Source: an uncultured Candidatus Saccharibacteria bacterium
GTDB lineage: Bacteria > Patescibacteriota > Minisyncoccia > Phycocordibacterales > CSBR16-119
DNA length: 64,000 nucleotides
Reading direction: 5' to 3'
Assembly: GCA_964557535.1 (NCBI GenBank)
Contig: CAZLAD010000002.1
Span: 85,560-149,559 of the forward strand
Numbering within the stretch: position 1 is the first letter of the stretch; every line of letters begins with the position of its first letter. Shown here one piece after another: positions 5,070-60,109 of this stretch. Position numbers and translations under genes: made by a program. The notes beneath the pieces are model-generated. The model was given only the letters and a program-made list of their open reading frames with translations, had not been told where the DNA came from and made no database searches.

Positions 5070-5133
5070 TTACCGCATTTTTAGCTTATTGTGGAGCAAA
5101 ATCTAAATTTTCTAAATCCCAATAACTTGTTAA

Positions 5134-5265
5134 GCGAAACGAAACCATTCATGAAAAGGACTTTCGGAGGCGAGCCTGCCTTTTGAAGGACAGGCTCGCC
5201 GAGAAGGAACGGACGGCCATTTACAGGCCGTACCGTGTGCCTTTTCATGAATGGCTTCGTGGAGC
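5134..5265. repeat. GC-rich multi-hairpin element A, closed by a roughly 20-bp outer stem
   Basis: Outer stem CGAAACCATTCATGAAAAGG / CCTTTTCATGAATGGCTTCG. Inner hairpins GGCGAGCCUGCC-UUUUGAA-GGACAGGCUCGCC and ACGGACGGCC-AUUUACA-GGCCGUACCGU. Confidence 0.6.
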
Positions 5266-5297
5266 AATTTAATAAGTCAAATTTTTAAGCGGAGTAA

Positions 5298-5366
5298 GGC
5301 GGGGCTTTTGAAAGTCTGAGGACGTAGTGCAAAGACACGCTCCCGCGGGACTTGAAAAAGCCCCGC
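5298..5366. repeat. GC-rich hairpin element B with conserved 33-nt core
   Basis: GGCGGGGC...GCCCCGC closing stem. Core GAGGACGTAGTGCAAAGACACGCTCCCGCGGGA is shared with the element at 52684-52773. Confidence 0.65.
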
Positions 5367-5380
5367 TTTGCGAAGCCTTT

Positions 5381-5860
5381 TTAGTAGGTTACTTCGATTA
5401 CACGCTCAACGGTTCTCTCAGTATTTTCTCCGCACGGAGTATTTGTCCCCTTTGAAATAATTCGAACTCCGCCAAATGGATCAATCTTATCGACGGACAA
5501 ACTCGCACAAGTAGAAGACGTTCCATCAGACAAAGGAATTTCAAATGTCGCAACAGACGGTTGTAAATAATTTACTTCGATAGCAATGCCCGCACAATCT
5601 ATCCCATTAAGTCCTTGACCAAAAGAATTGACGCGCAAATCGTGATAAAGCGCACACTCAACTCCAGAGTCAGCCGCATAAAAGGATTTATTGGCATCGG
5701 TTGCCGATCCAGACAAAACAACTTGCTTGAGCGAAATATTGGCAATACCCACCGCCATCGCCAAAACAACAGAAGCCAAAAGGACGGAAAAAAGCGCCAC
5801 AAATCCGCCAGATGATTCACTGCTCGCTTGGGATTTTAAATTTTTTAATGAGATTTTCAT
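5381..5860 (-). CDS. membrane-anchored Cys-containing protein at the distal end of the pilus operon (possible minor pilin-like)
   Basis: N-terminal SSGGFVALFSVLLASVVL hydrophobic segment resembling a prepilin leader but lacking Glu+5. Four Cys in the extracellular part. Confidence 0.45.
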   Translation of the reverse strand: MKISLKNLKSQASSESSGGFVALFSVLLASVVLAMAVGIANISLKQVVLSGSATDANKSFYAADSGVECALYHDLRVNSFGQGLNGIDCAGIAIEVNYLQPSVATFEIPLSDGTSSTCASLSVDKIDPFGGVRIISKGTNTPCGENTERTVERVIEVTY

Positions 5861-5876
5861 AATTTATAAATTTATT

Positions 5877-6542
5877 TTATGGATTGATCCAATTCGAAAG
5901 ATTATATTCGTAGGAAACACTATGAGTTTTCGTACCCTGTATCCAATCCACTCGTGAAGTCACAGTAATTTCCGACGGAGAGATACTTTCGATTGATATG
6001 CTTCTGGTAAAAATTGAAGCAAAAGAGTCCAGTCCATCAATCGAATCATAACTAAAGTGACCAGAGCTTTCTGTGTAGGTCATCGGCGGACAACCTTCAT
6101 TAGGACAAGCAACCGGAGTACTGATCGTCCAAGGATCAACGTAACAAAACTCTGAAGAGATACAATAATCAAGTTCAGATAAAACGGCAGACCATCCGCC
6201 AGATGGATTTGAAATCGATACTGTGTCTCGAATGTTGTGAATCAATTCTGCGCCCTCCATGGCCAAGTAACCAGCCGTAAATTTATTTTTCACAAAATTT
6301 GTATTAGCAATTCCCGAAGCCGTAATAGCGATTAGACCCGTGATTGCTGTGGCAAATATAGCCACGGCGACGAGTGTTTCGATAAGGGTGAATCCGCGCA
6401 CCAAATTTGGTTTATTTTGTGTATCTCCGAAGAAACTGCCATGAGGATTTTTCTTTGAATTTGGTGTTCGGATAAATCCGCGCGTAAAATTCGCATTTTC
6501 TGAATCGGTCTTTATTGTTTTTTTATTTAAAGGAATATTCAT
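5877..6542 (-). CDS. type IV pilin-like / pseudopilin protein
   Basis: Prepilin cleavage-methylation motif RGFTLIETLVAVAIFA (G-1, F+1, E+5). Start taken at MNIPLNKK (6542) rather than the track start 6701, which overlaps the upstream gene. Confidence 0.75.
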   Translation of the reverse strand: MNIPLNKKTIKTDSENANFTRGFIRTPNSKKNPHGSFFGDTQNKPNLVRGFTLIETLVAVAIFATAITGLIAITASGIANTNFVKNKFTAGYLAMEGAELIHNIRDTVSISNPSGGWSAVLSELDYCISSEFCYVDPWTISTPVACPNEGCPPMTYTESSGHFSYDSIDGLDSFASIFTRSISIESISPSEITVTSRVDWIQGTKTHSVSYEYNLSNWINP

Positions 6543-6552
6543 AAATTTAATA

Positions 6553-7284
6553 TCAAGGACCAGCCGGACCAGCAGGACCAACCGGTCCACCGGTTGAGCC
6601 AGTACCAGTGGTTGTAGTAGATCCGTTGTCTGGTATAGAAACAACATCAAGCACACGCTGAGACACTGTCGTCTGCATATTAAAATCTGTCTCGGCGCCA
6701 CTTAAATTTACAGTACCGACCAAAATGATGGTTATGGTTGGTTGTTTGCCGTCATCTATCTGCGAACCATCGACGATGAAGCCAGATTTATCTGGATCTA
6801 TGTATATCTCCGGTGGAGTAATTGGAACCATCGTCCCAGAAGCAAAGTTGAGATTGTTATAATCTTTTTTCCAAATAATGCCACCGTTTATATAATAAGC
6901 GACTTGATTATACGGATCAGCTGATGAATATTGCCAATAAGGTTCAAAAGAAATACTTTCACACGGACCAAAGCTTGGGTTATCTGGACCATCGTTGGTC
7001 AATGGACCAGATGAAACACTATAAACATCGTTATACGTAACTGCACCAGAATCCACACAAACAAAGTAATTCCCCAATCTCATCGAGCGGGCCATATCTT
7101 CCATGATAAAGCTCATGTTGTCGATGATGGCGCGCATGGACTGGGTTTTTCTACTCGTGGTATTCACACCCAGCACCGCACCGATACCAACAACCATGAT
7201 CACCGTAAACAAACCAATAGAAATCATCACTTCCACCAAAGTAAATCCTTTCTCGTATTGTTTTTTGACTGTTGCACGCTTCAT
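6553..7284 (-). CDS. type IV pilin-like protein with collagen-like Gly-Pro C-terminal tail
   Basis: KGFTLVEVMISIGLF prepilin motif. C-terminus ...GTGSTGGPVGPAGPAGP. Confidence 0.8.
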   Translation of the reverse strand: MKRATVKKQYEKGFTLVEVMISIGLFTVIMVVGIGAVLGVNTTSRKTQSMRAIIDNMSFIMEDMARSMRLGNYFVCVDSGAVTYNDVYSVSSGPLTNDGPDNPSFGPCESISFEPYWQYSSADPYNQVAYYINGGIIWKKDYNNLNFASGTMVPITPPEIYIDPDKSGFIVDGSQIDDGKQPTITIILVGTVNLSGAETDFNMQTTVSQRVLDVVSIPDNGSTTTTGTGSTGGPVGPAGPAGP

Positions 7285-7293
7285 GATTTTATT

Positions 7294-8034
7294 TTATCTG
7301 ATGTTTATATATCCCGAAGACCAAATAGAAACGTATTTGTGCGATCCTGACGGAGAAGTAATTTTCAAGAAAACATTGTTGTGTGGTGATACACCACCAT
7401 CATCCTGTGCGCCGTCTAGAATTATCGGGTTACCGCGCGGACGAGTAAAAGAGATAAAAGCTTGTGTACCCAAAACACCGTCGCAAGACAAACCAACGTA
7501 CTCAAAATCAAAACAAATCATGTCAATCACGTCACCGGAAGTTATCCTGATTTCTTCTAAACACTCTGATTCGGCACCAAGTCCGAAGCATCCTTCATAA
7601 GTCGATTCCGTAGTATCCCAAAAATCCCTATCGATCTCTATAACATTTGGATCGAGAACGGAGTTTTTGTTGAAATAATAAACGAAACCTTTGCCGGCCA
7701 AATCCCAACCATTTTGCGTATCTGTCTGAAATGCAATACCGTAACTCGGTTTCCAATCAAGAGGAGTTGACTGAATACTTCCGGGCGGAAATACTGGCAA
7801 ACTTCCAGACACCGCATCGGTCTGCGCACGCTTGATCTGCAGAGCAATATCCTGAGCTAAATTTTGCAAAGACACGTTGTTACTAAAATTTCTGTAATTG
7901 AAAAGTACGGTCGAAGAAATAGCCGCAAATATTCCCATCACGACAACAAGCTCAAGGGCGGTCATGCCCTTGTTTGTTGAAACGCTTCTATCAGAAGCGA
8001 GCCTGATTATTTTTTTATAAAAAAATCCAAACAT
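7294..8034 (-). CDS. type IV pilin-like / pseudopilin protein
   Basis: KGMTALELVVVMGIFAAI prepilin-type N-terminus after a basic leader. Confidence 0.75.
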   Translation of the reverse strand: MFGFFYKKIIRLASDRSVSTNKGMTALELVVVMGIFAAISSTVLFNYRNFSNNVSLQNLAQDIALQIKRAQTDAVSGSLPVFPPGSIQSTPLDWKPSYGIAFQTDTQNGWDLAGKGFVYYFNKNSVLDPNVIEIDRDFWDTTESTYEGCFGLGAESECLEEIRITSGDVIDMICFDFEYVGLSCDGVLGTQAFISFTRPRGNPIILDGAQDDGGVSPHNNVFLKITSPSGSHKYVSIWSSGYINIR

Positions 8035-8855: not shown

Positions 8856-8867
8856 ACCTGGTGAAAA

Positions 8868-8900
8868 ACAAAAACCCCGCCGAAGCGGGGTTTTTGTTTT
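8868..8900 (-). terminator. terminator AAAACCCCGCCGAAGCGGGGUUUUUGUUUUUU
   Basis: Immediately downstream of the major pilin gene. Confidence 0.85.
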
Positions 8901-8913
8901 TTAAGACAATTAA

Positions 8914-15071: not shown

Positions 15072-15767
15072 TTAACTTTGATTAGGCATCACATTAGAAG
15101 CATCATCTGTTGGTAATGTTGGCGATACGGGCAATGTTTCGGGTATTATTTCTGGCTCGTTCAATGATTGCTGTCTTTCTAGGAAAGATTCATACACGAC
15201 CAGAGACTTGTCCACAGAAAAAGTTAGGTTGAAAGAAATGTTCCCGAACTGATCAAGTGTAAAACTAGAAAATATTGGATTTTTAATGAAATTATTTTGA
15301 GCAAAGAGATCCGACTGCAATGCAATATAATTATAACCTTTTGCTTGACCGTTTATCTTTATATTAACAAGATTTGGATTTTGTTTATTGAATTCATAAG
15401 AGAAATCAGAATAACGAACTGTCGGAAGAGTAATTTCACCCAAAAGAGAAAATATAGGTGAAACAGCAACATGATTATCTAAAATTATCGTAGACGCCTT
15501 CATGCGCTTATCTAGAAGTTGGAGTTTTGTTATAAGTGTTGGCTCAAAAGCCGCTTTCGCTCTGACCAAAGATTCTTTGTAGGACTCCAGAGTATTTAAA
15601 AGAGAAGAACGATAGAAATAAACCCCTCCGGCACCCAAAATTGAAGCGATAAAAATCAAAAGCGCCAAAAGATTTAATAGACCACCAAAACCACCCCCCG
15701 AACGCTTTGGTTCGCGCTCTGCTATCGTTTTTTTAGGTACAAAAGATGTTTGAAATTCTTTATCCAT
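15072..15767 (-). CDS. pilN: PilN-like pilus assembly protein
   Basis: Single N-terminal TM after a basic cytoplasmic segment, periplasmic domain. Follows pilM. Confidence 0.6.
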   Translation of the reverse strand: MDKEFQTSFVPKKTIAEREPKRSGGGFGGLLNLLALLIFIASILGAGGVYFYRSSLLNTLESYKESLVRAKAAFEPTLITKLQLLDKRMKASTIILDNHVAVSPIFSLLGEITLPTVRYSDFSYEFNKQNPNLVNIKINGQAKGYNYIALQSDLFAQNNFIKNPIFSSFTLDQFGNISFNLTFSVDKSLVVYESFLERQQSLNEPEIIPETLPVSPTLPTDDASNVMPNQS

Positions 15768-15883
15768 CCCGTTAGAGATAGCAAATCTTTAGATTTGCGT
15801 ATCTTTTTTATTATTCTTTGAGTAATTCACGACCATATTTTTGTATCTTTTGTGATTAACTTTAACTATAACATCTCTAACGG
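15768..15883 (-). promoter_or_regulatory. structured 5' leader upstream of pilN, closed by the 12/11-bp helix CCGUUAGAGAU ... AUCUCUAACGGG, ending directly at the AUG
   Basis: Plus-strand CCCGTTAGAGAT at 15768-15779 and ATCTCTAACGG at 15873-15883. Internal hairpin GCAAAUC-UAAA-GAUUUGC. TAGAAT sits 10 nt upstream of the distal half. Confidence 0.6.
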
Positions 15884-15896
15884 TATCCATAAAATT

Positions 15897-17937: not shown

Positions 17938-18024
17938 CGGAGACGAGAGGATTCGAACCTCCGAGGGCTTTTACACCCTACCTCGTTAGCAGTGAGGCGC
18001 TTTCGACCACTCAGCCACGTCTCC
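17938..18024 (-). tRNA. tRNA-Ser (anticodon GCU), class II with long variable arm
   Basis: Reverse complement folds as acceptor GGAGACG/CGTCTCC, D-loop GAGTGGTCGAA, anticodon loop CUGCUAA, long variable arm, T-loop GGAGGTTCGAATCCTCT. No encoded CCA. Confidence 0.85.
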
Positions 18025-18920: not shown

Positions 18921-18929
18921 TCTTCCGTA

Positions 18930-18963
18930 GCAATCAAAAAATCCCCGTGAGGGGATTTTTTGA
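18930..18963. terminator. bidirectional rho-independent terminator AAAAAATCCCCGTGAGGGGATTTTTT
   Basis: Perfect hairpin with an A-tract on one side and a T-tract on the other, between convergent genes. Confidence 0.85.
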
Positions 18964-18967
18964 TTGC

Positions 18968-19474
18968 TTAGTTATTTCTTTGTTTATCACCAGGGACATC
19001 ACCTGTTCCAGATGAATAAAGTGTTTTATCTACAAACTTACCCTCTTTATCTCTTCCTATATATTTCCATTTTCCTAATGCTTCTTTATAAGCTTGTGCA
19101 ACTTTTGCACCCTCTGTTACAAGATAGTTTTCGTAAGCTTTTATCAAGGCTGGGTTTTCTTCCATTCTCTTTTCACCAAGCTTTGAATATTTTGCTGATA
19201 GTTGTTCTGGAGCCTGACCAAAAAATCCCATGATCTTACTTTTCAATGCTTCCATTTTGCCACCTTTCTCTGTCGCGGTTTCGGGTGTTTTATTTTCTAG
19301 TTGCCCCTTAGTTGCGTCTGCCCTGATTGCATCAGATGATTCACTGTCAATCATTCCTGTCTTTTCAGCATGTTCAACAGTCATTCCTGAGTCTACCCTC
19401 TCTTTAACGGCCTCATTAGATGTAAGTTCTTCTTTTCTGCCAGGCGCAACTTCTACTTTTGGTGCTTCTCTCAT
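18968..19474 (-). CDS. hypothetical hydrophilic protein (168 aa, Lys/Glu-rich)
   Basis: Long ORF with a TTTGTA-N17-TATAAT promoter upstream (19490-19520, minus strand). No recognisable domain. Confidence 0.55.
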   Translation of the reverse strand: MREAPKVEVAPGRKEELTSNEAVKERVDSGMTVEHAEKTGMIDSESSDAIRADATKGQLENKTPETATEKGGKMEALKSKIMGFFGQAPEQLSAKYSKLGEKRMEENPALIKAYENYLVTEGAKVAQAYKEALGKWKYIGRDKEGKFVDKTLYSSGTGDVPGDKQRNN

Positions 19475-21556: not shown

Positions 21557-21565
21557 TAAGCTCGT

Positions 21566-21681
21566 CCCGTTAGAGATGTTTTGTTTTACATAACTACGAA
21601 AGCGGTGACGTTACTATTTATAAAAGGTTTATCAAAATTTAATCAAGGTACGTCAGCCCAAGACTGACTATCTCTAACGGG
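21566..21681 (+). promoter_or_regulatory. structured 5' leader closed by a 12-bp long-range helix (CCCGUUAGAGAU ... AUCUCUAACGGG), ending 4 nt before the ATG
   Basis: Perfect 12-nt inverted pair at 21566-21577 and 21670-21681. Internal hairpin GUCAG-CCCAAGA-CUGAC at 21652-21668. See findings. Confidence 0.6.
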
Positions 21682-21685
21682 ATAA

Positions 21686-22042: not shown

Positions 22043-22065
22043 ACGACCCTTAAAAATCTCCGCAC

Positions 22066-22223
22066 TAAAAACAAGATGTTTTGCCTTAAAAGTCCGTTCT
22101 GTTTGAGGAGTGTCTAAACACTCCGAGTTAACGGATCTTTTTGGCTTAAAACATCTTGTTTTTAGGCTAGATTTTTTCTGGGTCTTGAATTTTTGGTTAC
22201 TTTTGCTTCAAGGCAAAAGTAAC
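22066..22223 (+). promoter_or_regulatory. nested hairpin region between the receiver gene and recG (terminator or attenuator-like)
   Basis: 18-nt perfect inverted repeat CTAAAAACAAGATGTTTT at 22066-22083 and 22148-22165, enclosing hairpin GGAGTG-TCTAAA-CACTCC (22107-22124). A third hairpin GTTACTTTTGC-TTCAAGG-CAAAAGTAAC lies at 22196-22223. Confidence 0.5.
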
Positions 22224-25861: not shown

Positions 25862-25936
25862 TCCACCCTCCACGACTCGAACGTGGGACCCTCGAGGTAT
25901 AAGCTCGATGCTCTAACCAACTGAGCTAAGGGTGGT
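25862..25936 (-). tRNA. tRNA-Ile (anticodon UAU)
   Basis: Reverse complement: acceptor CCACCCU/AGGGUGG, D-arm GCUCAGUUGGUUAGAGC, anticodon arm UCGAG-CUUAUAC-CUCGA, T-arm CCACG-UUCGAGU-CGUGG, discriminator A. Confidence 0.8.
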
Positions 25937-28508: not shown

Positions 28509-28884
28509 GGGGATGACCGGCTTTGACATTTGATTCCCTTTTGTTAGCGCATGTCGAGCTGAAGTAACTCGTCAAACTGCTTCAAACCCTTAGATGCAAA
28601 ATCTAAAGGACTAGTGAAGTCTCCATTTCAAATGAAGGCTTTCACTCCAGCTTTCGCGTAAGCCAGGGCTGGTGTCATTCATTCTGAATCCTGATACGGA
28701 TGAATGGCATAATAAAATCGGGATAAGCGCTCGGCCTTCTCGCCCGCGCGACAAAAATCTAGAGATCGATTCGTGTTTGTTTTGTTTATCCTATAGAACA
28801 CGTCTCTAAATCAAAAGATAAACTACACATGTAGACCCTAGCAGAAGCATCTTATGGACGGGGGTTCAATTCCCCCCATCTCCA
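28509..28884 (+). ncRNA. ssrA: tmRNA (SsrA)
   Basis: 5' GGGGAUG pairs with 3' CAUCUCC including the G3-U wobble. T-arm GGGGGUUCAAUUCCCCC then ACA. An internal reading frame ends ...QMKAFTPAFA*. Terminator follows. Confidence 0.8.
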
Positions 28885-28890
28885 CAATTA

Positions 28891-28922
28891 GCAAAAGACT
28901 CCTTCGGGGGTCTTTTGCTTTT
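28891..28922 (+). terminator. rho-independent terminator GCAAAAGACUCCUUCGGGGGUCUUUUGCUUUU
   Basis: Hairpin plus U-tract after tmRNA. Confidence 0.8.
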
Positions 28923-28962
28923 GGTGGTAAAATATAATTATTAGAAGCTTAAGAAATTTCTT

Positions 28963-29391: not shown

Positions 29392-29407
29392 TCTAAAATT
29401 TAGAAAA

Positions 29408-29440
29408 GAAAAGCCCCGACATGTCGGGGCTTTTCTTTTA
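29408..29440. terminator. bidirectional terminator AAAGCCCCGACAUGUCGGGGCUUUUCUUUU
   Basis: Between convergent genes. Confidence 0.85.
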
Positions 29441-33627: not shown

Positions 33628-34896
33628 TTAGTATTGTCTCATTGAAACCTGTCCTTCGACTTTCTTCAAAATATCCAGGATGACCGACACGACGATTAGC
33701 ACTGCCGTACCTCCGATGGCCAAAGTCGAAAGCCCTGTCACTTGTTGCATAATTATCGGAAGCACAGCCACAAGACCAAGGAAAATCGCACCCAAAAAAG
33801 TGATTCGAGAAACAATCTTACCAATATACTCACTCGTCGAAACTCCTGGACGAATACCTGGAATAAACGCACCATTTTTCTGTAAATTTGTAGCAACAGA
33901 ATCCGGATCAAAAGTTACTGCTGTGTAGAAATATGTAAACAAAAACACCAGAACAAAGTACGCCAGAGCATAAATCCAAGTAGATTGCATAAACCAAGTC
34001 ATGGCTTTTGAAACAGCCAACAAGAACGCATGTGACGAATTAGCGAAAAAGTTAGCAATAAGTTGTGGAAACAAAAGTAACGATAGCGCAAAGATGACTG
34101 GCATAACTCCGGCCTGGTTGATACGTAGTGGTAGGTATGATGATCTAGCTGCCGCAGTTCCTCCGGCTCTAGCCTGATTTGCGTATGTTATTGGAAGCAA
34201 TCTTTCAGCTTCGGTGATGATAATAATTCCCGCAATAAGAATTAAAGCGACGACGACGAATCCGATATAAGTTAGAAGTTGTGCCTTGTCAAAAGTAAAT
34301 ATAAGCTGACTAATTTGTCCTGGGAGCGCTGCCACAATACCCGCAAAGATAATAACGGATACACCATTTCCAATACCTCGTTCTGAGATAAGCTCACCCA
34401 ACCAAACCAAAAACATAGATCCGGCCATAACAACAATCATTGCGAGAGCTTTCTCGTAAGCGGTCAAAGCTTCCAGAACGCCATTTTGAAAAAGAATAGT
34501 TAGAAGCGCGTATCCTTGGATAAGAGAAAGTGGGACTGTCAGATATCTAGAATATTTGGCAAATTGTGTTCGTCCCATCTCGCCCTCTTCATGATACATT
34601 GACTTAAGTCTAGGAGACATAAGAGTCAAGAGTTGCATGATAATTGATGCAGTAATATAAGGACCGACTCCCATCATTACAATAGACAAGGCTGACAATC
34701 CACCACCAGAGAAAATATTTAAAACACCCAGAAGCTGGTTACTCTCGAGGAATCCTTGTAGACGAAAAGCATCAACACCTGGTATCGGAATAGTCGAAAG
34801 CAATCTAAATATTGCCAATATTAACAAAACAAAAATTATTTTCTTGCGAAGATACTTGTCCGTGAAAACTAATTTTATTTTTTGCCAAAGTGTCAT
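33628..34896 (-). CDS. secY: preprotein translocase subunit SecY
   Basis: 10 TM helices, typical SecY. 422 aa. Confidence 0.95.
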   Translation of the reverse strand: MTLWQKIKLVFTDKYLRKKIIFVLLILAIFRLLSTIPIPGVDAFRLQGFLESNQLLGVLNIFSGGGLSALSIVMMGVGPYITASIIMQLLTLMSPRLKSMYHEEGEMGRTQFAKYSRYLTVPLSLIQGYALLTILFQNGVLEALTAYEKALAMIVVMAGSMFLVWLGELISERGIGNGVSVIIFAGIVAALPGQISQLIFTFDKAQLLTYIGFVVVALILIAGIIIITEAERLLPITYANQARAGGTAAARSSYLPLRINQAGVMPVIFALSLLLFPQLIANFFANSSHAFLLAVSKAMTWFMQSTWIYALAYFVLVFLFTYFYTAVTFDPDSVATNLQKNGAFIPGIRPGVSTSEYIGKIVSRITFLGAIFLGLVAVLPIIMQQVTGLSTLAIGGTAVLIVVSVILDILKKVEGQVSMRQY

Positions 34897-34897
34897 T

Positions 34898-34959
34898 CCA
34901 TTAGTAAATTAAATTTGTAATTTTTTTATCAACTTATCTTCCGCTGATTTACTAACGGG
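34898..34959 (-). promoter_or_regulatory. variant leader helix upstream of secY (CCCGUUAGUAAA ... UUUACUAAUGG-A-AUG)
   Basis: Same architecture as the pilN and receiver leaders, with compensatory changes on both strands. Confidence 0.55.
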
Positions 34960-34969
34960 ACAAGTCATT

Positions 34970-37427: not shown

Positions 37428-37697
37428 TTACCAAGATGACTTGCGAACACCTGGAACTTCACCTATAGAAGCTAATTCGCGGAATTTGATACGAGAAAGT
37501 CCAAAGTCTCGTAGATATCCTCGTGGACGACCAGTGATCCCGCAACGATTCTTTACGCGTGTTGGACTAGAATTTTTTGGAAGCTTCTGAAGACCTTCGT
37601 AGTCTCCGGAAGCCTTAAGAGCTGCTCTTTTAGCAGCGTATTTTGCAACCATTTTGATGCGCTTATTATTTCGCGCGATTACTGATTTTTTAGCCAT
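37428..37697 (-). CDS. rpsN: 30S ribosomal protein S14 (long form)
   Basis: 89 aa, C-terminus [33 protein letters not shown]. Confidence 0.93.
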
Positions 37698-38133
37698 TGT
37701 TTTTTAGCTGTTAGCTTCTGGCCATTAGCTATTAGCTAAAGGCTAATGGCTAATGGCTCCGGTTCAGTAATATCTCACGTTTTTTCTTGAAGGTCCCGAG
37801 GGGCATTCAAGGAGAAACGCGGATTAAACTGAACTGAGGGCTATATTAGCAGATTGAGATTTTATGTCAATCAAAATAATTTGAGCCCCGGTCTTGTTAG
37901 ACCAGGGCCCCATAGCTGACACGTAAAGTGCTTTTGATAGCGACTTGAATAGCCAAAGGACTTTGGTCCTCGGCAGGGGCAAGAGCACCTGCAAGAATGC
38001 TCTGCCACCCGCCGAGACCATACGACTTGTTGGCATGAACTCTATCATACTCCAACCATATTGTCAAGCGATTTTGGACAATCTTTTACTACCCTGAATT
38101 TATTCATTCCAACGTTCCTCATTGTCTCCACCG

Positions 38134-44093: not shown

Positions 44094-44215
44094 TTGATTA
44101 TCGTTTTTAAAACACTACTTATCGGCAAGTGCAACCATAATTTGTAAATTAAGAAGCCTTGAGCCCTTAGCTTTTAGCCGTTAGCTAACGGCCAATGGCT
44201 AAGAGCTAACAGCTC

Positions 44216-48864: not shown

Positions 48865-48932
48865 GAAAGCCATTAGCCTTTAGCCATTAGTTTTTAGCTA
48901 ACGGCCAACGGCTAAGAGCTAAAAGCTATAAT

Positions 48933-49527: not shown

Positions 49528-49647
49528 ACCCACACACCAAGTTTTTGATTAAACCAGTTGCGATCATACGTTTTAGATAAAAAGATAATTATTAGTTACA
49601 CACTTAGAATTATTTAAAACTTGGTGTGCGGGTAAAATAATCTAAAT

Positions 49648-52683: not shown

Positions 52684-52773
52684 GCGGGGCCAGATTGCGG
52701 TTTTGACAATCCGAGGACTATAGTGCGTAGACACGCTTTCGCAGGATTGGAAAAATCTGCAATCTGGCCCCGC
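52684..52773. repeat. GC-rich hairpin element C (second copy of the B family)
   Basis: 13-bp perfect closing stem GGGGCCAGATTGC/GCAATCTGGCCCC. Core GAGGACTATAGTGCGTAGACACGCTTTCGCAGGA. Confidence 0.65.
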
Positions 52774-52794
52774 GCCCTATGCTACAATTTATTT

Positions 52795-53193
52795 ATGAAA
52801 ACAATTTTCGAGAAAATTATTGATGGTGAGATTCCATCGACAAAGGTTTACGAGGACGACAAATTCTTGGCTTTTTTAGATATTCATCCGGTTTCCAAAG
52901 GTCACACACTCCTAATAACCAAAACCCACTACACATGGATACACGAAGCACCCGATGAAATTGTCGGAGAAATTTTCATCAAGGCGAAAAGTCTAATCGA
53001 AGCGATGAGGGCAGGTCTTCCATGTGATTACGTTCAAGTCGGAGTCGTTGGCAACGAAGTCCCTCACTTTCACATCCATCTAATTCCAAGATTTTTGACC
53101 GAGGAAGTTCATATGTCATCAAGACCAGAAACTCCCTATGAAAATTCTGATGAGATGTCCGAATACGCCGAGAAAATAAAATCCCACCTCTAA
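52795..53193 (+). CDS. HIT-family (histidine triad) hydrolase
   Basis: HFHIHLIP histidine triad. ATG at 52795 (MKTIFEKIIDGEIPS); the track start at 52723 is upstream. Confidence 0.85.
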   Translation: MKTIFEKIIDGEIPSTKVYEDDKFLAFLDIHPVSKGHTLLITKTHYTWIHEAPDEIVGEIFIKAKSLIEAMRAGLPCDYVQVGVVGNEVPHFHIHLIPRFLTEEVHMSSRPETPYENSDEMSEYAEKIKSHL

Positions 53194-53211
53194 GCTCCAC
53201 TTACCGACGGA

Positions 53212-53347
53212 GCAAAACCTATTTAAATTTTTCTTCAACATCACCCGTAGGGTGCGCGCTAGTGAAAGCTTGGTAATCTTTGGTCTCCCGAGTGCTCGGA
53301 GGGAGACTTTGGCGCGCATCTTGAAGAAAAATTTAAATAGGTTTTGC
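53212..53347. mobile_element. MITE-like element: perfect 27-bp terminal inverted repeats flanking an 82-bp GC-rich structured core
   Basis: Left GCAAAACCTATTTAAATTTTTCTTCAA (53212-53238), right TTGAAGAAAAATTTAAATAGGTTTTGC (53321-53347). The core contains GCGCGC pairs and a CTCCCGAG/CTCGGAGGGAG hairpin. Between convergent HIT and pgk. Confidence 0.5.
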
Positions 53348-53358
53348 GAAGTTCCTTG

Positions 53359-59975: not shown

Positions 59976-60011
59976 GCGGAACAAAACATAATTTAAAAAG
60001 ACAATACGGAG

Positions 60012-60090
60012 AAAGGTCTGCCTTTTGAAGGACAGACCTTTCGAGTCTTTAGCGGCTCGCTGTTTACAAGCGAGAACGCGTGTCTTTTTT
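60012..60090 (+). terminator. clpP 3' hairpin cluster ending in ACGCGUGUCUUUUUU
   Basis: Hairpin AAAGGUCUGCC-UUUUGAA-GGACAGACCUUU (60012-60040), also found at 5170-5200. A second hairpin and a U-tract follow. Confidence 0.6.
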
Positions 60091-60109
60091 AATTATGTTT
60101 TGCGGAGCG

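Follow-up and report, generated by a model that had tools for sequence, protein, structure and literature searches.

The 64-kb stretch of Candidatus Saccharibacteria DNA analysed here (henceforth referred to as the window) contains two copies of a hairpin repeat, both intergenic and both on the + strand: copy 1 (win1) lies in the spacer between ligA and a pilin-like gene, which are both on the - strand, and copy 2 (win2) lies between the divergent starts of recJ (- strand) and a HIT gene (+ strand). The positions, the intergenic setting and the shared orientation are as given in a preliminary description of the window, which had been made from the sequence alone. Both copies share the core GAGGAC-N2-3-AGTGC-NN-AGACACGCT-NN-CGC, which is set inside a two-tier hairpin and matches at 5318-5346 and 52713-52742. 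The core motif proposed in the preliminary description is present in both copies, but its first spacer, there fixed at two bases, is off by one base in copy 2; the spacer reads GT (2 nt) in copy 1 and TAT (3 nt) in copy 2. The pattern GAGGACN{2,3}AGTGCNNAGACACGCT gave two matches in the window against 0.00 expected from 100 shuffles, with no core match in any dinucleotide shuffle, and the 21-nt pattern AGTGCNNAGACACGCTNNCGC, allowing up to three mismatches, gave the same two matches against 0.04 expected. A third copy of this type (henceforth referred to as module A) was not found in the window by either nhmmer or a covariance model.

As a whole element, copy 1 occupies 5289..5382 (+ strand; 62.1 bits with the covariance model) and belongs to the GC-rich-stem subtype of module A; an identical copy is found in L016, a contig of the window's species. 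Its 5' flank GCGGAGT (5289-5295) is followed by the outer stem (5294-5309/5356-5371), a GA/GA internal loop (5310-5311/5354-5355), the inner stem (5312-5317/5348-5353) and the apical core GAGGAC GT AGTGC AA AGACACGCT CC CGC G (5318..5347, delimited by pattern matches and alignments), and the 3' flank GCGAAGC (5370-5376) leads into TTTTT, a T-run (5378-5382) that overlaps the stop codon (5381-5383) of the pilin-like gene; all parts are on the + strand. The sequence and its fold place the full hairpin at 5294-5371, so that the locus had been correctly identified before and its extent drawn slightly too short. Copy 2, also on the + strand, forms a hairpin over 52684..52773 (60.1 bits, and supported by its fold) with an outer stem (52684-52704/52752-52773) that has one bulged T in its 3' arm, a GA/GA loop (52705-52706/52750-52751), an inner stem (52707-52712/52744-52749) and the apical core GAGGAC TAT AGTGC GT AGACACGCT TT CGC A (52713..52743). 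Inner stems that differ in sequence yet pair, AAGTCT/GGACTT in copy 1 and CAATCC/GGATTG in copy 2, were found as first described. The predicted folds have free energies of -39.1 kcal/mol (copy 1, z = -5.3 against shuffles) and -52.9 kcal/mol (copy 2, z = -7.7 against shuffles). The GC-rich outer stem (GCGGGGC.../...GCCCCGC), previously taken as a general feature, is present in both window copies and confined to one subtype of the family; likewise, the GC content of copies 1 and 2 (0.59 and 0.54) does exceed that of the window (0.43), but not to the extreme degree suggested earlier, and the stems of copies from other genomes are rich in AU.

We searched for the core as an exact pattern across a collection containing one genome per species and obtained 13 loci (loci from other genomes are numbered L001-L033), three of which (L001, L003 and L006) are chance matches from unrelated taxa without a hairpin. 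Ten main-type copies lie beyond the window, in four related Patescibacteria metagenome-assembled genomes with 1-4 copies each, and the 12 main-type copies in five genomes have one shared architecture. The possibility, raised in the preliminary description, that only the two window copies exist thus fails, given these ten copies together with four short-core variants and one hybrid in related genomes. A covariance model built from the alignment of the copies, a check that had been proposed at the outset, and nhmmer run alongside it recovered 13 main-type copies at 60-75 bits and the four short-core variants at 26-34 bits (L002 5893-5967, L005 5719-5794, L008 1613-1681 and L012 3561-3629); the variants have GC-GAA/AAA/GCA-GC in place of the central GUG-YNNAGA-CAC hairpin. 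The hybrid (L029 9460-9563) retains the scaffold and GAGAAC and carries a larger apical hairpin. The sequence examined in detail amounts to ~420 kb of fragments, and the reality of the flanking genes was checked by Pfam. Outside this group, a pattern scan of a viral collection gave no match, the two matches in a metagenome pattern scan were both due to chance, and BLAST against phage genomes found no copy. The Rfam check, also proposed at the outset, gave no matching family at any threshold tried: Rfam 15 at the gathering threshold reported only tmRNA and two tRNAs across the whole window, and E-value searches with both copies, the module B region described below and five related loci gave only far-sub-threshold microRNA and small RNA (sRNA) noise. 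Literature on hairpins, non-coding RNA and MITEs (miniature inverted-repeat transposable elements) in Patescibacteria, or candidate phyla radiation (CPR), yielded nothing relevant. Homologs of LigA and RecJ assign the window to a clade resembling Paceibacteria/Nomurabacteria. Overall, the hairpins are a real family of interspersed intergenic elements, restricted to a small lineage of ultra-small bacteria, which has apparently not been described so far.

Read on the GAGGAC strand of the element (henceforth referred to as the purine strand), the copies share a scaffold, or chassis, of the form AGCGRA-[GCAAAA...TTTTGC]-GRAGC with a GA/GA internal loop. The parts follow in the order AGCGRA flank, outer stem, GA/GA loop, inner stem, core, mirror-image 3' half and GRAGC flank; the outer stem has 12-26 bp and typically begins with GCAAAA and ends with TTTTGC, the internal loop is a 2x2 GA/GA (at times 3x2), and the inner stem has 3-6 bp. 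In module A the core reads GAGGAC-N2-3-A-[GUG-YNNAGA-CAC]-GCU-YY-CGC-R. When the terminal G-C pairs are included, the flanks are GCGRAGC on both sides, and GCGNAGC is described in PMC13037366 as an exceptionally stable DNA mini-hairpin with a GNA triloop. Alternatively, the two flanks lie opposite one another and form a purine loop (GGA/GGA) with two closing G-C pairs. We then assessed covariation on a register-corrected alignment of 12 copies (198 stem cells in 18 pairs, compared with 500 shuffles). Standard pairs occupied 98% of the stem cells and compensatory double changes were seen in 14 of the 18 stem pairs, giving a covariation score of 0.86 against 0.26 in the shuffles, none of which reached the observed value; sliding the partners reduced pairing to 61% or less, a slide of one column giving about 60%. 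The idea of covarying stems around a conserved loop, first put forward for two copies, thus holds well beyond them. Since pairing is near-complete and maintained by compensatory changes, it is the fold that is under selection and not the sequence of the stems; selection on the stems acts on their pairing. The core, in contrast, is kept even in copies whose stems cannot be aligned. The 19 pattern positions are identical because the search was built on them, but the T after ACGC and the CGC, which lie outside the search pattern, are also invariant in 12 of 12 copies; these extra positions, together with an orthologous pair of elements described below and the difference from the stems, which are scrambled, lead to the conclusion that the apical loop, which is ~30 nt long and near-invariant, is constrained.

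The same scaffold carries other apical modules in the window. Module B (5139..5260, + strand; flanks GCGAAAC and GTGGAGC) shares the ligA-pilin spacer with copy 1 and folds into a three-way junction at -76 kcal/mol (z = -9.9) with no Rfam match. A second module B (59976..60108, + strand; flanks GCGGAAC at 59976-59982 and GCGGAGC at 60102-60108) starts directly after the TAA of a + strand gene and stops one base short of the stop codon belonging to a converging - strand gene; CTGCCTTTTGAAGGACAG and TTTACA hairpin loops are common to the elements at 5139-5260 and 59982-60102. We considered whether the element at 5139-5260 could be a signal recognition particle RNA or another housekeeping RNA and rejected this, since it has no Rfam match and its second copy at 59982-60102 is another scaffold module. 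Module C (53207..53352, + strand), with a 30-bp outer stem GCAAAACC.../...GGTTTTGC and flanks ACGGAGC and GCGAAGT, sits between the converging HIT (+) and pgk (-) genes, and the orthologous genes in L029, L031 and L033 have a PGK Pfam call. Module D (22057..22165) is on the - strand, on which its 3' flank GCGGAGA reads, and it has an apical helix, GGAGTG-TTTAGA-CACTCC, with homology to the core of module A; the continuous GGAGTG/CACTCC helix suggests that module A pairs GGA with YYC and GTG with CAC around an internal loop. By position, module D is also orthologous to the L010 copy of module A: the two lie behind response-regulator genes that are orthologs (84% identity), in the same orientation, and have homologous stem bases TAAAAAC/GTTTTTA, the upper stems are altered with compensation, and AGTG...AGACAC aligns. 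Finally, a remnant consisting of the 5' flank GTGGAGC and the 5' arm AAAATCTAAATTTTCTAAATCCC (5091..5121, + strand) represents the AU-rich-stem subtype that is intact in L013, and it breaks off exactly where the core would be expected to start. A further explanation is that the scaffold could be a dedicated expression-and-processing cassette, by means of which transcription units of these episymbionts with reduced genomes would give off, at their ends, various small structured RNAs (modules A, a, B, C, D and E), in loose analogy to units of the snoRNA or tigRNA type that are excised from longer transcripts. Although we consider this decidedly improbable, it would, if true, amount to a CPR-specific class of scaffold-displayed RNAs in which each module docks a different partner.

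All elements are intergenic, and most lie 0-33 nt past a stop codon. In tandem contexts the element follows the upstream stop codon by 4-33 nt, and a promoter-like site for the next gene comes directly after it in L011 (TTGTGG-17-TGcTACAAT), L012 (TGaTATAAT), L013 and the window (TCCACA-17-TAAAAT), after module D (TGTATAAT) and in L029, with no other terminator between the element and the next promoter-like site in these tandem contexts. Four convergent spacers (L008, L009, window module B and module C) are filled from stop codon to stop codon. The neighbouring genes include ligA, recJ, fusA, rplI, rpmA and clpP. In eight of nine tandem spacers the purine strand runs antisense to the upstream or flanking genes, and in the convergent spacers of L002 and L005, which contain head-to-head pairs, the same holds for all four elements relative to whichever gene is nearer. 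Between the head-to-head elements of L002 (5846-5893) we saw a palindrome rich in A/T, AAAAAGAAAGG-T-CCTTTCTTTTT, which resembles a weak bidirectional terminator. The orientation of module D flips with the local gene strand while the GC skew stays negative across the window, so orientation follows transcription and not replication. Overall, the elements are mostly at the ends of transcription units and their orientation is tied to the direction of transcription.

These observations bear on the idea that the element is a site at the level of DNA, that is, a cruciform or duplex bound by a nucleoid, topoisomerase, recombination or uptake protein, or an internal promoter, with the RNA structure being irrelevant. 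E. coli REP/BIME elements (repetitive extragenic palindromes and the mosaic elements formed of them) bind gyrase and IHF, the AAGTGCG in the core resembles the core of the Pasteurellaceae uptake signal, and the GAGGAC strand of the element contains a sigma-70-like TAGACA-17-(TG)GAAAAT/AAAAAT with the terminal T in 7 of 12 copies; a promoter scan picked up this internal TAGACA-17 site in copy 2. However, pairing at 98% through compensatory changes requires intrastrand folding rather than duplex recognition, and an orientation tied to transcription would be unexpected for a symmetric cruciform. Furthermore, transcription from the internal promoter-like site would enter the upstream gene in antisense direction in eight of nine tandem spacers, 5 of 12 copies have a degenerate version of this site, and two elements per 64 kb is a density far below that of an uptake signal. 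We therefore regard a DNA-level site as very unlikely.

We next compared orthologous spacers between genomes. In the window a run of prepilin-like (N-methyl) genes (6553-7284, with open reading frames (ORFs) at 5381-8034) lies upstream of ligA, and the gene order in all related loci is type IV pilus operon, ligA, gatC and gatA. The pilin-ligA spacer is only 28-34 bp long and empty in L018, L019 and L022, holds other hairpins in L020 and L024, and is the site of a module A copy with an AU-rich stem in L013; in L016 and the window it contains a truncated 5' arm (5091-5121), module B and then the GC-rich-stem copy 1. Similarly, L029, L031 and L033 have an empty recJ-HIT spacer, the site of copy 2 in the window, and in L027 and L028 this spacer is occupied by an unrelated hairpin. 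Moreover, identical arms, GCAAAATCTAAATTTTCTGAATCCC, are present at non-orthologous loci of two genomes (L002 and L013). Since the spacers are empty, filled or differently filled, elements have been gained, lost and replaced; taken together with the module D and L010 pair, there is gain, loss and replacement plus long retention of some elements. With regard to the recJ-HIT spacer itself, an extended -10-like sequence, TGCTACAAT (52780-52797), ends only 6 nt before the ATG of the HIT gene (52795), which suggests a leaderless or very-short-leader mRNA, and the empty orthologous spacer in L029 retains a TGTAGCATGTTACAAT-type divergent arrangement.

Such turnover is what would be expected of a purely selfish non-autonomous DNA hairpin of the REPIN or MITE type, whose loop and flanks would be recognised on folded single-stranded DNA by an enzyme acting in trans, for example a HUH/Y1 transposase. 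The stems would then need only to pair, the orientation bias would reflect the purging of insertions that disturb expression, and the element would have no host function. Patchy presence in the orthologous pilin-ligA and recJ-HIT spacers, the identical GCAAAATCTAAATTTTCTGAATCCC arms, the truncated remnant and nested arrangement at 5091-5371, and the head-to-head A+a pairs in L002 and L005, which recall BIMEs, all point in this direction. So do the GCGNAGC motifs, described as mini-hairpins in PMC13037366, and the tandem G.A loops of the purine strand, as well as its 14 G.U cells compared with 2 A.C cells. Yet a comparison of filled with empty sites (L013 compared with L018, L019 and L022, where the flanks are too diverged for base-by-base alignment) reveals neither an evident target-site duplication nor a terminal inverted repeat, no transposase-type Pfam was called among the genes of the fetched loci (the window genes not having been scanned), and the copy number is low, with two of module A in 64 kb. 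In addition, the retention of an element with compensated stems at an orthologous spacer, at ~84% protein identity, argues for selection in place, and orientation tracks transcription, unlike what single-strand transposition at replication forks would produce. A purely selfish origin is thus a possible but, in our view, unlikely explanation.

The known repeats that these hairpins most readily call to mind share only part of their features. REP/BIME elements (palindromic units, PU) and REPINs are short extragenic imperfect palindromes found at gene ends or inside operons of enterobacteria and pseudomonads; within mRNAs, REPs act as 3' stabilisers or attenuators, and their stem sequence and 5' GTAG are conserved while their loops are small and variable. 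The present elements resemble REP/BIMEs in being extragenic, at gene ends, single or in opposed pairs (L002 and L005) and patchy between relatives, but they differ in having free stems, a conserved 30-nt loop and conserved flanks, a low copy number and interchangeable modules. Specifically, the stems share no sequence between copies and the flanks are GCGRAGC rather than GTAG, and no Y1_Tnp Pfam call, as expected of a RAYT, was present among the genes listed for the fetched loci (~420 kb of fragments; whole genomes were not scanned). MITEs such as Correia/NEMIS, ERIC/IRU, RUP and BOX are defined by terminal inverted repeats and target-site duplications and are similar along their whole length. 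Like them, the elements are non-coding, ~70-150 bp long, intergenic, presumably co-transcribed and form long hairpins, possibly with promoter- or terminator-like signals, and BOX elements are modular too; however, in place of terminal inverted repeats the outer arms differ completely and only the short flanks are conserved, as direct repeats. The early suggestion of a REP/MITE-like mobile hairpin hence survives as far as dispersal, filled and empty spacers, shared arms, and nested and head-to-head arrangements are concerned, and not in respect of the classic hallmarks of either group.

The reading that we favour, albeit tentatively, is that of a REP/BIME-like copy-and-replace hairpin repeat acting as an RNA hairpin at the transcript end, with its apical loop bound by a putative factor. 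The element would be transcribed within the neighbouring transcription unit, and the upstream mRNA would usually carry it at its 3' end, reverse-complemented relative to the GAGGAC strand. At this position the hairpin, which is very stable, may mark or protect the transcript end, in a terminator-like manner or by blocking 3' exonucleases, and the apical module together with the purine/pyrimidine internal loops could provide a docking surface for a sequence-specific factor. New copies would arise by a copy-or-replace process in which modules are exchanged on the same scaffold. The orientation rule favours this reverse strand, since it is the strand that lands in the upstream mRNA, and so does the better GGA/YYC-equivalent pairing at the YY positions (14 of 16 copies on the reverse strand compared with 10 of 16). 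We also considered a GNRA tetraloop (GC-GRRA-GC) on the reverse strand, which seems less likely because it is at odds with the GGA/YYC helix that homology to module D suggests.

Several points weigh against the transcript-end reading. The transcribed strand is deduced from gene orientation only, and the G.U excess, the GA/GA and GGA/GGA loops and the GCGNAGC flanks favour the strand that is antisense to the genes. We do not take the G.U excess as decisive for the strand, since most G.U cells are loop-adjacent or come from closely related, non-independent copies; minimum free energy favours the purine strand slightly and in only 12 of 20 elements. The copy 2 and L004 elements lie between divergent gene starts, without a transcript end, and the element in L029 is in sense orientation, the sole tandem exception. 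Nor are the elements canonical intrinsic terminators, as the U-run belongs to the stem, where G-C pairs close it off, and AU-rich stems are common. We identified no candidate for either a binding protein or a mobilising enzyme, and the 100% identity of the 19 core positions is in part an ascertainment effect of having scanned the collections with an exact pattern.

The same features of the purine strand could also mean that the elements are free-standing sRNA genes, each transcribed from its own promoter into a rod-like RNA of ~80-110 nt that ends in GCGRAGC-UUUUU and acts in trans (a sponge or decoy for a protein, for instance). On the purine strand, the tandem sheared G.A loops, the GNA triloops and the higher number of G.U pairs are what one typically sees in folded RNAs, GCGRAGC is followed by TTTTT on this strand in copy 1, L005 and L007, and an antisense position relative to the neighbours would be expected of an independent, convergently placed gene. 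Against this, the U-tail follows the flank in only 3 of 12 copies, there is no conserved -35/-10 at a fixed upstream distance, and the TAAG that recurs ahead of the flank is missing the final T, which is essential, and coincides with the neighbour's stop codon in L009 and window module B. The two elements of L005 face each other with ~20 nt between their 5' ends, which leaves no room for promoters, and presence is patchy even among close relatives. Taken as a free-standing gene, the structured small RNA suggested in the preliminary description is thus unsupported, and we consider it improbable.

Hairpins of other kinds provide a further comparison. An intrinsic terminator has a short G+C-rich stem and a loop of 3-8 nt, with a U-run immediately behind. 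Intrinsic and bidirectional terminators, including families of conserved sequence such as mycobacterial TRIT and inverted pairs of uptake sequences (DUS/USS), are like the elements in placement, in the A- and T-runs at the ends and in the very stable stem; the elements differ in that their loops are 25-80 nt long and conserved in sequence, and their stems are long, often AU-rich, and G-C-capped with a base-paired U-run. A terminator scan found none at either window copy; simple canonical terminators are present elsewhere in the window (29404-29439, 8864-8901 and 18929-18968). Integron attC sites are likewise imperfect, structure-recognised hairpins with a variable and perhaps branched centre, strand-specific folding and a fixed orientation to the upstream gene, whereas in the present elements the centre is the conserved part; in addition, the arms are GCAAAAY...RTTTTGC and not RYYYAAC/GTTRRRY, there is no cassette array or integrase, and the neighbours are housekeeping genes. 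TIGR-Tas stem arrays of CPR bacteria and phages consist of tandem units beside a tas gene, with variable spacers between box C/D motifs (PMC12045711). Palindromic stems of variable sequence, short conserved loop motifs and occurrence in Patescibacteria are points of likeness, but we rejected a TIGR unit because the elements are solitary, their loop is invariant and their neighbours are housekeeping genes; the GA/GA loop is symmetric and without a 3-nt bulge, and is therefore not a kink-turn or box C/D. A small or leader peptide starting from the core GTG after GAGG was also rejected, since the length of the ORF is not conserved (8 codons in most copies, 42 aa in copy 1, and in copy 2 a 24-codon extension in frame into the HIT gene) and synonymous positions are invariant. 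The stems are not guides, as no other 11-mer arm matches were found in the window beyond chance. Resemblances to the 11-nt tetraloop receptor (CCUAAG, in four copies only), to the sarcin-ricin loop (GAGGACC) and to an uptake signal sequence (AAGTGCG) were treated as coincidences.

Next to nothing is known of the non-coding elements of Patescibacteria, whose genomes are very compact, so that every intergenic base is costly. An invariant loop on free stems is the opposite of the conservation seen in REPs and MITEs, and the combination of loop conservation, interchangeable modules and transcription-linked orientation points to an unrecognised factor at transcript ends or to a new form of hairpin copying. 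The analysis provides a covariance model and a testable set of loci, and the elements could serve as clade markers.

Finally, other repeats and RNAs were seen in the window. A different repeat consists of inverted pairs, ATCCCGTTAGAGAT ... ATCTCTAACGGGAT, around ~35-95 bp and is conserved in several genomes of the clade (window 15766-15886, 21562-21685 and 34893-34963; L016 21009-21075; L012 2402-2522; L022 18316-18433); where checked against gene calls (window 21562-21685, L016 and L022), a gene start codon lies either within the pair or at its end, and the repeat may be an operator or leader structure. Three imperfect palindromes of ~60 bp centred on TTAGCTAA, with ~7-nt TTAGCY-type repeats, lie between genes at 37690-37753, 44155-44214 and 48868-48927. 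A further type of hairpin, whose arms are (G)CCCCCACA.../...TGTGGGGG(C) and whose loops are unrelated, occurs at 49528-49633, in L002 (2487-2556) and in the recJ-HIT spacers of L027 and L028, where, between the divergent genes, it takes the place that copy 2 has in the window. The tmRNA gene (28509-28887, 150 bits) is followed by a hairpin at 28882-28927, and the two tRNA genes, both on the - strand, are at 25862-25935 and 17938-18024.

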